Part shown: positions 26,897 to 58,899 of the stretch, piece after piece
Position numbering within the stretch: the stretch's first letter is position 1
Layout: each line of letters starts with the position of its first letter
Origin: Escherichia coli
Lineage (GTDB): Bacteria > Pseudomonadota > Gammaproteobacteria > Enterobacterales > Enterobacteriaceae
Length of the DNA: 64,000 nt
Reading direction: 5' to 3' (one strand)
Assembly: GCF_044647545.1 (NCBI RefSeq)
Contig: NZ_CP172818.1
The notes under the pieces: model-generated
What the model was told of the DNA's origin: nothing
What the model saw: only the letters and a program-made list of their open reading frames with translations
Database searches by the model: none
Program-made: the position numbers and the translations under genes

Positions 26897-27095
26897 GAGG
26901 TTGTCCCGTATTTAGTGTCGCTGATTTGTATTGTCTGAAGTTGTTTTTACGTTAAGTTGATGCAGATCAATTAATATGATACCTGCGTCATAATTGATTA
27001 TTTGACGTGGTTTGATGGCGTAGATGCACGTTGTGACATGCAGATGATAATTATTATCATTTTGCGGGTCCTTTCCGGCGATCCGACAGGTTACG

Positions 27096-27107
27096 GGGCG
27101 GCGACCT
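27096..27107 (+). other. lambda-type cosN cohesive-end sequence GGGCGGCGACCT
   Basis: Exact lambda cohesive-end 12-mer preceded by GATCCGACAGGTTACG; CGTTTCC/GGAAACG repeats (terminase small-subunit binding elements) lie between it and nohD. Confidence 0.8.
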
Positions 27108-27284
27108 CGCGGGTTTTCGCTATTTATGAAAAATTTCCGGTTTAAGGCGTTTCCGTTCTTCTTCGTCATAACTTAATGTTTTTATTTAAAATACCCTCTG
27201 AAAAGAAAGGAAACGACAGGTGCTGAAAGCGAGCTTTTTGGCCTCTGTCGTTTCCTTTCTCTGTTTTTGTCCGTGGAATGAACA

Positions 27285-55213: not shown

Positions 55214-57454
55214 TCAGAAGTGAGTGTTTACGCTCATATACCACGTACGTCCCGGCTCGTTATAGGTATACGCCCCGGCACCTGCGATATAGTTGGCTCC
55301 TGCCAGATCGCCCGTGGTCTGGGCATTACCCGCACGCCACAAACGTTTGTCGAACAGGTTGTCCACGCCGCCGGTCAGACTGACATTCTTCGTCACATCC
55401 CAGGTCGCGCTCAGGCCAACAATGCTGTACGGGCTGATTTCTTTGGTTTCCGGTCCAACCGCTGGCTGACCTTTATAGTTGTACTTCTTCGGCTGCTGCT
55501 TGCCGTACCAGGTGAAGGTTGTTTGCATCGACAAATCTTCCCGTGCCTGCCAGCTCAGCGTTGAGTTCAACGTATACTCCGGGATGATCGACAAACGGTC
55601 GCCCGTGGTTTTGTTTTCACTCTTCAGCATATAAGTGATGTTATTGGTCCACATCACCGTTTCGCTAACCGGTACGTTTAACGATCCTTCCAGACCTTCA
55701 ACCACCGCTTTCGGTACGTTATCCCACTGATAGAGATCGGTGCCGACTGCGTTTTGCCCTACAGCCACATAGCCCGCTTCAATCTTATTGCGATAATCGT
55801 TACGGAACCAGGTGACGCCCGCCAGCCAGCCGTCGCGTTTGAACTCCAGACCAATCTCTTTGTTGATGCTGGTTTCCGCTTTCAGGTCATCATTACCTTG
55901 CAGATAGCAGCCGCCCGCGCTGGCATAGCAACCCTGACCTTTACTGTAGAGAATGTAGTTCGGGTTAGTCTGGTACAGGCTCGGTGCTTTATAGGCGCGG
56001 GCAATGCCCATTTTCAGCGTGAAGTCATCGCCTAAACCTTGCGATATGTTCAGCGCCGGGCTCCAGTTATTGCCAACAATGCTGTGATGATCGAAACGCA
56101 GCCCCGGCGTTACGATGGTGCTGTCAGTCAGCTCCATATTGTTTTCGGCAAATAGCGAGAAAATTTCTGCTTTTGAATACGGGCTACGGTCGGTGGCACT
56201 CACACCATCAATAGCACCGCCAGTATTCGTCCCAGTGAGCGCCTGGGTGTTGGAACTTAAATCCTTCATCCGCTGCTGATTCCACTCCGTACCCAGCGTC
56301 AGCGTCTGGTTAACGAGGAAATCAATCGGCAGGTTAACTTCGCTGTGCAGCATCACGTCATCGAGATCGATATCGACGAAATCCTGTGTCGCTTTTTCGT
56401 TAAATTTCCCTTCGGTACCGCCCGCCAGACCTTCCGGAATACGCGAGTTACGGGTGTGTTCGTACTGCACCCAGTTGCTGGTGGTCACGCCGTTATCCCA
56501 GCCACCGTTCCAGGTCAGCGAGTAGTTCTGGCGATACAGGCGGTTGGTTTCATCGCCATATTTCGAGCGAGTGTAAGCGTCAGAGTTGGTGTTCTGAGTA
56601 TCACCCGCATACAGGTTACCCTGGCGGCTGTAGCCCGCTTCCAGTTCGAGTGATTGCAGAGGCGCGAAGTCCCAGCGCACTACGCCATTAATATCTTTGT
56701 TAATTACCCCTTCGCGCCCGGCTGGTAACGTCGTGGCATACGTTCCGGCACGCGCGGACTGATGGCCCTGGTTGATATCCCACGCGTCAGCCTGGGTTTT
56801 GTCGAGGTTGCCATACAAGCGGAAGCTGAATTCGTCGCCCAGCGGACCGGTCAGGCTGAAGTTGGTGCGTTTGGTGGCACCTTCCTCTTTATGTTCTGGC
56901 GCATTGAAATAAGCATCCCAGGAGCCGTGCCACTCACCGCTGCCTTTTTTGGTAATGATGTTAACCACGCCGCCCGCCGCGCCGTTGCCATAACGCGCAG
57001 CTGCCGGACCACGCAGAACTTCAATACGTTCAATCATTTCAGGTGGCACCCAGGAGGTATCACCACGGGTATCGCGCTCGCCACGCCAGCCCTGACGCAC
57101 TGAGTTACGGCTGCTTACCGGCTTGCCGTCAATCAAAATCAGCGTGTTTTCCGGACCCATGCCGCGAATATCAATCTGGCGGTTATTCCCACGCTGACCA
57201 CTGGTGGAGTTACCGGTCAGGTTAACGCCTGGCATGGTACGGATGATCTCCGACACATCACGGGCAACGGGGTTTTTGCGGATTTCATCTGCGGTGATGG
57301 TCGAAACGCCAGGCGCCTGCAAGTTCTGCTCGGCGGCGGTAACGACAATGGTATCGTCATGTGAAACAGGAGTATCGGTCGGCTCTTGTGCCTGTGCTAC
57401 CCCATAAATCCCCAGATTGACCAACAAGGCCAGGGAATGAATCTTCTTGTTCAT
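55214..57454 (-). CDS. fepA: TonB-dependent ferric enterobactin outer-membrane receptor FepA
   Basis: 746 aa from MNKKIHSLALLVNLGIYGVAQA; TonB box DTIVVTA; C-terminal aromatic residue. Confidence 0.94.
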   Translation of the reverse strand: MNKKIHSLALLVNLGIYGVAQAQEPTDTPVSHDDTIVVTAAEQNLQAPGVSTITADEIRKNPVARDVSEIIRTMPGVNLTGNSTSGQRGNNRQIDIRGMGPENTLILIDGKPVSSRNSVRQGWRGERDTRGDTSWVPPEMIERIEVLRGPAAARYGNGAAGGVVNIITKKGSGEWHGSWDAYFNAPEHKEEGATKRTNFSLTGPLGDEFSFRLYGNLDKTQADAWDINQGHQSARAGTYATTLPAGREGVINKDINGVVRWDFAPLQSLELEAGYSRQGNLYAGDTQNTNSDAYTRSKYGDETNRLYRQNYSLTWNGGWDNGVTTSNWVQYEHTRNSRIPEGLAGGTEGKFNEKATQDFVDIDLDDVMLHSEVNLPIDFLVNQTLTLGTEWNQQRMKDLSSNTQALTGTNTGGAIDGVSATDRSPYSKAEIFSLFAENNMELTDSTIVTPGLRFDHHSIVGNNWSPALNISQGLGDDFTLKMGIARAYKAPSLYQTNPNYILYSKGQGCYASAGGCYLQGNDDLKAETSINKEIGLEFKRDGWLAGVTWFRNDYRNKIEAGYVAVGQNAVGTDLYQWDNVPKAVVEGLEGSLNVPVSETVMWTNNITYMLKSENKTTGDRLSIIPEYTLNSTLSWQAREDLSMQTTFTWYGKQQPKKYNYKGQPAVGPETKEISPYSIVGLSATWDVTKNVSLTGGVDNLFDKRLWRAGNAQTTGDLAGANYIAGAGAYTYNEPGRTWYMSVNTHF

Positions 57455-57609
57455 TGTTTTATTCCTGCATTTTTGCCACGAATTGCAACTGTCGGGCATG
57501 GTCGTCATCAATACGACGCACCCCGCTACCGCGAAAACCTTTGATCCTGAAAGACACGCAGTGCAGTTGGTTAATTAATGTCCGCGCTTCCCACGGCGCG
57601 CCATTACGC

Positions 57610-57650
57610 TATTGCAAATGCAAATAGTTATCAATAATATTATCAATATA
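57610..57650. promoter_or_regulatory. Fur box-like AT-rich repeats in the divergent fepA-fes promoter region
   Basis: AATAGTTATCAATAATATTATCAATAT resembles overlapping GATAAT hexamer Fur sites. Confidence 0.55.
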
Positions 57651-57696
57651 TTTCTGCAATCAATGAAAAATTGCACAGTAAACATGGGGTTATGGT

Positions 57697-58899
57697 GTGA
57701 CGGCGTTAAAAGTAGGAAGTGAGAGCTGGTGGCAGTCGAAACATGGCCCGGAATGGCAGCGTCTGAATGACGAAATGTTTGAGGTCACTTTCTGGTGGCG
57801 TGATCCCCAAGGTTCTGAAGAATACTCGACGATAAAGCGCGTATGGGTCTACATCACTGGTGTGACCGATCACCATCAGAACAGCCAGCCCCAGTCGATG
57901 CAGCGAATTGCAGGCACCAACGTCTGGCAGTGGACGACACAGCTCAATGCCAACTGGCGCGGCAGCTACTGCTTTATTCCCACCGAACGCGATGACATTT
58001 TTTCTGCACCATCCCCCGATCGCCTCGAATTACGTGAAGGCTGGCGAAAACTATTACCCCAGGCGATAGCCGATCCGCTGAATCCACAAAGCTGGAAAGG
58101 CGGGCGAGGGCACGCTGTTTCTGCACTCGAAATGCCGCAAGCGCCTCTGCAACCGGGATGGGATTGTCCGCAAGCGCCAGAAACGCCTGCCAAAGAAATT
58201 ATCTGGAAAAGTGAACGGTTGAAAAATTCACGCCGTGTATGGATTTTTATCACCGGCGATGCAACAGCAGAAGAACGCCCGCTGGCAGTTTTGCTTGATG
58301 GTGAATTTTGGGCGCAGAGTATGCCCGTCTGGCCTGCGCTAACTTCGCTGACCCATCGTCGGCAACTTCCTCCCGCCGTGTATGTGTTGATCGATGCTAT
58401 CGACACCACGCACCGCGCCCACGAACTGCCGTGTAATGCGGATTTCTGGCTGGCAGTACAGCAAGAGTTATTACCCCTGGTGAAAGCTATTGCCTCTTTT
58501 AGCGATCGCGCCGATCGCACCGTGGTCGCCGGGCAGAGTTTTGGTGGGCTTTCCGCGCTGTATGCCGGACTGCACTGGCCTGAACGCTTTGGCTGTGTAT
58601 TAAGCCAGTCAGGATCGTACTGGTGGCCGCATCGGGGCGGGCAGCAAGAAGGTGCTTTACTTGAGCAACTTAAAGCTGGTCAAGTTAGCGCCGAAGGTCT
58701 GCGCATTGTGCTGGAAGCGGGTATTCGCGAGCCGATGATCATGCAGGCCAATCAGGCGCTGTATGCGCAATTACACCCCATAAAAGAATCCATTTTCTGG
58801 CGTCAGGTTGACGGCGGACATGATGCGCTTTGTTGGCGCGGTGGCTTGATGCAGGGGCTAATCGACCTCTGGCAACCACTTTTCCATGACAGGAGTTGA
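57697..58899 (+). CDS. fes: enterobactin esterase Fes
   Basis: 400-aa ORF from an apparent GTG start; a shorter form from an internal start is possible. Confidence 0.85.
   Translation: MTALKVGSESWWQSKHGPEWQRLNDEMFEVTFWWRDPQGSEEYSTIKRVWVYITGVTDHHQNSQPQSMQRIAGTNVWQWTTQLNANWRGSYCFIPTERDDIFSAPSPDRLELREGWRKLLPQAIADPLNPQSWKGGRGHAVSALEMPQAPLQPGWDCPQAPETPAKEIIWKSERLKNSRRVWIFITGDATAEERPLAVLLDGEFWAQSMPVWPALTSLTHRRQLPPAVYVLIDAIDTTHRAHELPCNADFWLAVQQELLPLVKAIASFSDRADRTVVAGQSFGGLSALYAGLHWPERFGCVLSQSGSYWWPHRGGQQEGALLEQLKAGQVSAEGLRIVLEAGIREPMIMQANQALYAQLHPIKESIFWRQVDGGHDALCWRGGLMQGLIDLWQPLFHDRS

Follow-up and report, generated by a model that had tools for sequence, protein, structure and literature searches.

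We are highly confident that positions 57605 to 57652 of the 64,000-nucleotide stretch of Escherichia coli DNA analyzed here, hereafter called the window, constitute a single Fur operator that serves two divergent units, fepA-entD and fes-ybdZ-entF. The Fur-controlled bidirectional promoter between fepA and fes is a textbook element and was already known; what we add are motif statistics, a conservation profile across Enterobacteriaceae, and an account of how the promoter hexamers of both directions overlap the operator, each of which is an observation of the present analysis.

Results

The operator lies in the spacer between two divergent genes

The two genes and the spacer that separates them are as follows.

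55214..57454, minus strand: fepA coding sequence, encoding the ferric enterobactin outer-membrane receptor (open reading frames and RefSeq annotation)
57455..57696, no strand: fepA-fes intergenic spacer, 242 bp (open reading frames and RefSeq annotation of an identical genome)
57697..58899, plus strand: fes coding sequence, encoding the 400-aa enterobactin esterase, with a GTG start (open reading frames and RefSeq annotation)

The left edge of the spacer is the fepA ATG and its right edge is the fes GTG. E. coli FDAARGOS_497 is 100% identical over a 446-bp query around the spacer, and its RefSeq limits for fepA and fes coincide exactly with those given here, which confirms the spacer coordinates and gene names of the initial annotation. 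Most of the same query is present in 5414 of 5426 complete E. coli genomes. Relative to K-12 MG1655 the spacer carries 2 substitutions only, at 57512 and 57521, both of which fall in the fepA leader and outside the operator. A terminator scan of 57355..57800 found none, and Rfam covariance models searched against both strands of 57300..57850 gave no match with E ≤ 1.

The initial annotation had treated the entire spacer, taken as 240 bp, as a control region. This holds for about 48 bp of shared operator and promoter, whereas the left 146 bp are transcribed as the fepA 5′ untranslated region (5′UTR).

Published Fur binding maps to the AT-rich block

Literature on an identical sequence has established protection by Fur, expression that depends on Fur, and the 5′ end of fepA. 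The operator and the sequence elements within it are listed here.

57605..57652, no strand: Fur operator (published DNase I footprint on the identical K-12 sequence, coinciding with an almost invariant block)
57614..57650, no strand: four overlapping Fur sites in a 6-bp register, 37 bp in all (position weight matrix, PWM: 8.1 bits at 57614, 13.4 at 57620, 2.2 at 57626, and 5.0 at 57632)
57620..57638, no strand: strongest Fur site, GCAAATAGTTATCAATAAT, 13.4 bits (PWM, rank 7 in the window)
57614..57625, plus strand: tandem hexamers GCAAAT GCAAAT (read directly from the sequence)
57628..57636 and 57640..57648, plus strand: two copies of the 9-nt direct repeat TTATCAATA, 12 bp apart (repeat search)

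Table 3 of Chen et al. 2007 (PMC2189734), citing Hunt 1994, gives the fepA-fes DNase I footprint as NC_000913.2 611868-611915. The same authors predicted 4 sites in a 37-bp cluster, the strongest of them at 611889, -172 from fepA and -149 from the fes start annotated at the time. Because the offsets from fepA and from the old fes start fix the mapping, the footprint can be placed at 57605..57652 of the window, where the K-12 footprint sequence is identical to ours. Our PWM cluster at 57614..57650 was found independently and, at 37 bp, has the same length as the published one. Footprint data had been proposed in the initial annotation as a check on its reading, and with coordinates taken by way of Chen et al. 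2007 they bear that reading out: the AT-rich repeats it had noticed at about 57620..57650 lie inside the DNase I Fur footprint and among four phased Fur sites.

In addition to this binding evidence, ChIP-seq combined with expression data shows fepA-entD to be one of the operons that Fur both binds and regulates (PMC4676285), and a fepA transcription start that escapes detection in the wild type appears when fur is deleted and also in vitro (PMC10301672).

A caution applies to older coordinates for this locus. Values such as the -149 from fes in Chen et al. 2007 count from the former fes ATG at window position 57775, which began a 374-aa version of the protein and lies 78 nt inside the present 400-aa frame.

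The Fur motif exceeds background when scored as a cluster

The classical consensus GATAATGATAATCATTATC has no match in the spacer at 3 or fewer mismatches. Its best spacer match, at 57614, has 6 mismatches, and 59 site-and-strand scorings in the window are equal or better; at the operator, mismatches to the textbook 19-bp consensus number 6-8. Because the textbook consensus is thus at background level in the spacer, we built an independent PWM, a palindromic 19-bp model obtained by expectation-maximization and trained on 15 other MG1655 Fur sites with fepA-fes left out; these sites were located by converting footprint positions given in Chen et al. 2007 to NC_000913.3.

With this PWM, which amounts to the scan proposed in the initial annotation, the only positive scores in the spacer are those of the four phased sites, in agreement with the overlapping Fur sites that had been suggested there. 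The best site (57620, 13.4 bits) ranks 7 among about 64,000 positions in the window, where the phased four-site sum of 28.7 bits ranks 2. When the spacer, its AT-rich part, or just the footprint is shuffled with dinucleotide content preserved, the observed scores are reached in 0.6-1.6% of cases. The Fur motif therefore exceeds background, and the cluster does so more clearly than the single site. The expectation of a motif above background is thus upheld by the PWM or the cluster score but not by the textbook consensus alone.

A score of 13.4 bits falls below those of 12 of the 15 training sites. Since several of the footprinted training sites themselves score low (tonB at 12.5 bits, exbB at 13.6 bits), a close match to GATAATGATAATCATTATC does not appear to be strictly required.

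The top Fur-motif match of the window lies elsewhere, at 27040..27064; it scores 21.2 bits and departs from the classical consensus at 3 positions. A DLP12-like prophage carries it, a short distance upstream of a lambdoid cos site, GGGCGGCGACCT, whose core is at about 27097..27108; nohD and a terminase gene follow downstream. We take this flank to be the cosQ side of cos, and it is unlikely to be a promoter under Fur control. Because a prophage cos flank gives the highest score in the window, a motif score by itself does not prove a Fur site.

Repeats and symmetry in and around the operator

Beyond the repeats listed above, the region contains an imperfect 40-bp palindrome whose arms, 57619..57639 and 57638..57658, are 71% complementary about a center at approximately 57638/57639. 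It is flanked by the mirror-image motifs ATTGCA (57611) and TGCAAT (57655). The latter also opens an inverted repeat, TGCAAT-N9-ATTGCA (57655..57675, plus strand), a potential 6-bp hairpin in the putative fes leader that is weakly conserved across species.

One E. coli genome shows an expansion in this region. The bat isolate A20 (NZ_CP028755.1) has five TGCAAA units where the window has two (57613..57624), an in-register gain of 18 bp within the Fur operator that would move the -35 and -10 of the fes promoter apart and interrupt the proximal promoter of fepA. In a search that covered the five-unit allele, A20 alone carried it among 5413 matching genomes.

The operator block is nearly invariant across Enterobacteriaceae

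For comparison between species we searched species-representative genomes with FepA residues 1-250, which yielded 80 loci from about 80 Enterobacteriaceae species. The fes gene lies divergently upstream of fepA in 79 of these 80 loci, so that two divergent genes sharing one spacer is the conserved arrangement, with Fes identity ranging over 51-98% and spacer length over 133-318 bp. Mean identity to the window base across 57605..57652 is 0.955, compared with 0.43-0.46 in the fepA leader and 0.61 on the fes side; even the first 30 nt of the two coding sequences (fepA 0.80, fes 0.64) fall below the operator block.

The 19-mer at 57620..57638 is nearly invariant in the 80 species and scores 11.7-22.5 bits. 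Every one of the 80 has a site of at least 11.7 bits together with 3-4 phased positive sites, and none of 160 control 400-nt coding segments contains a site at or above that score. The score of the main site is below 13.4 bits in a single species and higher in about a third; where the 19-mer varies, its Fur score usually goes up, to as much as 22.5 bits. The center of the 19-mer stays about 66-69 nt from the fes start and lies anywhere from 68 to 250 nt from the fepA ATG. Within E. coli, the operator 61-mer at 57598..57658 is identical in 4860 of 5413 genomes, a comparison that mainly reports allele frequency and adds little.

Promoter hexamers of both directions overlap the operator

Hunt is said to have described, in 1994, one fes promoter and two tandem fepA promoters. 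The hexamers assigned in the present sequence are as follows.

57612..57640, plus strand: candidate fes promoter, with -35 TTGCAA at 57612..57617, a 17-bp spacer, -10 TAATAT at 57635..57640, and a probable start at about 57647 (best plus-strand hexamer pair)
57634..57663, minus strand: distal fepA promoter, with -10 TATTAT at 57639..57634 and a start at about 57627 (consensus scans and PMC10301672)
57600..57635, minus strand: candidate proximal fepA promoter, with -35 TTGATA at 57635..57630, an 18-bp spacer, -10 TAGCGT at 57611..57606, and the 5′ end at 57600 (suggested by sequence)

Two -35 hexamers are available to the distal fepA promoter: TTGATT at 57663..57658, from the consensus scan and with an 18-bp spacer, or TTGCAG at 57659..57654, with a 14-bp spacer. 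The second corresponds to the fepA promoter TTGCAG-14-TATTAT, which maps to window 57659..57634 and which the ROSE paper (PMC10301672) reports to be active in vitro and in cells deleted for fur. For the proximal promoter, primer extension places the predominant fepA 5′ end at -146, equivalent to window 57600 (PMC11979758), and the putative -10, TAGCGT, is weak (3/6). We infer the exact fes start from the hexamers; the likely fes and distal fepA starts are about 20 bp apart, which agrees with the 19 bp between fes and fepA starts attributed to Pettis 1988 in the quotation given by PMC4469952.

The candidate -10 hexamers of fes and of the distal fepA promoter overlap at 57634..57640, one on each strand, and the hexamer sets assigned to fes (57612..57640) and to fepA (57600..57663) all lie in the Fur block or overlap it. 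The earlier suggestion of iron-repressed bidirectional promoters is supported both by the overlap of the operator with sigma-70 hexamers of both directions and by the Fur dependence recorded in the literature.

The remainder of the spacer is leader sequence

Outside the operator, the spacer is accounted for by two leaders.

57455..57600, minus strand: fepA 5′UTR, 146 nt, a structured leader and translation initiation region that is a target of small RNAs (PMC11979758)
57647..57696, plus strand: putative fes 5′UTR, about 50 nt, with a conserved Shine-Dalgarno-like GGGG(TT) at 57686..57691 (conservation profile)

The fes start deserves comment in view of its reannotation. Because GGGG(TT) is conserved before the GTG, and GTG occupies the aligned fes start in 56 of the 80 species, the 400-aa start is supported.

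The fepA leader corresponds to the 146-nt small-RNA hub of Solchaga Flores et al. 2024 (PMC11979758), apart from the two substitutions relative to K-12 at 57512 and 57521. These authors probed its structure, which consists of stem-loop I and a three-way junction, II-a/b/c, and found that seven small RNAs repress, three of which need the far-upstream stem-loop II-b; conservation of the leader was not a topic of their study. Folding of our sequence also predicts a 5′ hairpin, CGCGC/GCGCG, equivalent to stem-loop I, together with two internal hairpins. The predicted stability of the leader is no better than that of shuffled sequences (z = 0.14). The 5′ hairpin is 90% paired in 51 sequences, with weak covariation, and RNAalifold on 52 leaders returned no consensus structure because the leader alignment is too divergent. 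Among the 80 species the length of the fepA 5′UTR, as we estimate it, runs from 39 to 221 nt and its middle aligns poorly; the operator-to-fes distance is fixed.

Both substitutions fall in a predicted hairpin that we map to stem-loop II-c. Position 57521 is C here and T in K-12, which converts an A·C mismatch into a G-C pair, and 57512 is in the loop. Only a minority of E. coli genomes share the leader allele of the window: 57490..57550 is identical in 319 of 5393.

Discussion

Comparison with related systems

The closest counterpart is the K-12 fepA-fes region itself (Pettis 1988; Hunt 1994; Escolar 1998; Chen et al. 2007, PMC2189734), which has the same element, footprint, 242-bp spacer, and genes. 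The window comes from a non-K-12 strain, and nothing functionally notable differs. Two further Fur-controlled loci of the enterobactin cluster, fepB-entC and fepD-entS, both of which lie outside the window, resemble fepA-fes in having divergent iron-repressed promoters with clustered, phased Fur sites; fepB-entC has two separately protected regions, one per promoter, whereas fepA-fes has one footprint for both directions.

In Klebsiella pneumoniae, fepA and fes are arranged as in E. coli, their overlapping bidirectional promoters are likewise described as containing a Fur box, and mutations in this Fur box abolish iron repression of both genes (PMC12485182). The homologous region acquired 12 independent mutations during a K. 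pneumoniae outbreak, and Fur-box mutations made fepA and fes expression constitutive, with increases of up to 500-fold (PMC12485182). The Klebsiella species in our 80-species set keep the 19-mer, at 13.4-16.5 bits, but their loci differ in having spacers of 266-312 bp and another leader sequence.

Alternative readings of the conserved block

The near-invariance of about 46 bp invites the question of whether Fur and three promoters are enough to explain it. A composite site, in which a further regulator or a DNA-structural need also constrains the block, would fit its 95.5% identity, higher than that of the first 30 nt of either coding sequence, and it would fit the left edge at 57598..57613, which is conserved yet not covered by the PWM sites. 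Mutations outside the promoter determinants reportedly lowered both transcripts, according to the abstract of the 1994 work by Hunt, and this too counts for a composite site. Against this, a Fur site, a -35 or -10 hexamer, or a start of one of the three promoters already accounts for almost all bases of the block, so that the known overlapping constraints may suffice, and no second motif was identified in the block. We therefore regard a composite site as unlikely overall, and consider it a shade less likely again that the invariance of 57605..57650 specifically reflects an extra constraint such as a second regulator or a DNA geometry needed for switching between the two directions.

It seems highly improbable that the AT-rich repeats are mere promoter or UP-like DNA, or a site for a nucleoid protein such as H-NS, with a likeness to Fur sites that arises from base composition. 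The block is indeed only 21% G+C, the textbook consensus matches it at background level, and AT-rich prophage DNA in the window gives PWM matches that are comparable or better. However, composition-preserving shuffles seldom reach the observed score, the four matches keep a strict 6-bp register, and the published Fur footprint coincides with them. Moreover, AT-richness by itself would not fix individual bases, whereas the 19-mer hardly varies over 80 species and its changes rarely lower the Fur score.

Finally, a minus-strand small protein encoded in the spacer can hardly be credited. In some strains, among them 23AR0922, PGAP does annotate a 66-aa "hypothetical protein," WP_001174912.1, at the equivalent of window 57459..57659 (minus strand), but this frame needs G rather than C at 57609 to stay open and has a TAG stop here and in K-12. 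It would also cross both the operator and a 5′UTR whose length differs between species, from 39 to 221 nt, and whose sequence is 43-46% conserved. We therefore reject this small open reading frame for the present sequence and consider it very likely a spurious PGAP call.

A shared iron switch

Returning to the shared Fur operator, the evidence is consistent with a simple model. When iron is sufficient, Fe2+-Fur dimers would occupy about four overlapping 19-bp sites that follow one another every 6 bp across 57614..57650. Within the same approximately 48 bp, or overlapping them, are the -35 and -10 hexamers of all three promoters, one for fes and two in tandem for fepA, and since these hexamers coincide with the Fur-bound segment, bound Fur would be expected to keep RNA polymerase from both directions simultaneously. 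This exclusion of polymerase, which we infer from the overlap, is supported by the title of Escolar 1998 as it is cited in Chen et al. 2007 (PMC2189734). Under iron scarcity Fur would leave, and both fepA-entD and fes-ybdZ-entF would be transcribed. The remainder of the spacer is leader, with about 50 nt before fes and the 146-nt structured fepA 5′UTR (57455..57600), the latter adding a second, post-transcriptional layer of control through small RNAs.

The locus is useful mainly as a positive control and has value for calibration, in that a plain consensus test would nearly discard a true, footprinted site. Consensus-only scoring proves both insensitive and non-specific here, whereas the combination of cluster or phase scoring with phylogenetic footprinting separates the true site cleanly. 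Biologically, this element is the iron switch for the uptake and hydrolysis of enterobactin.
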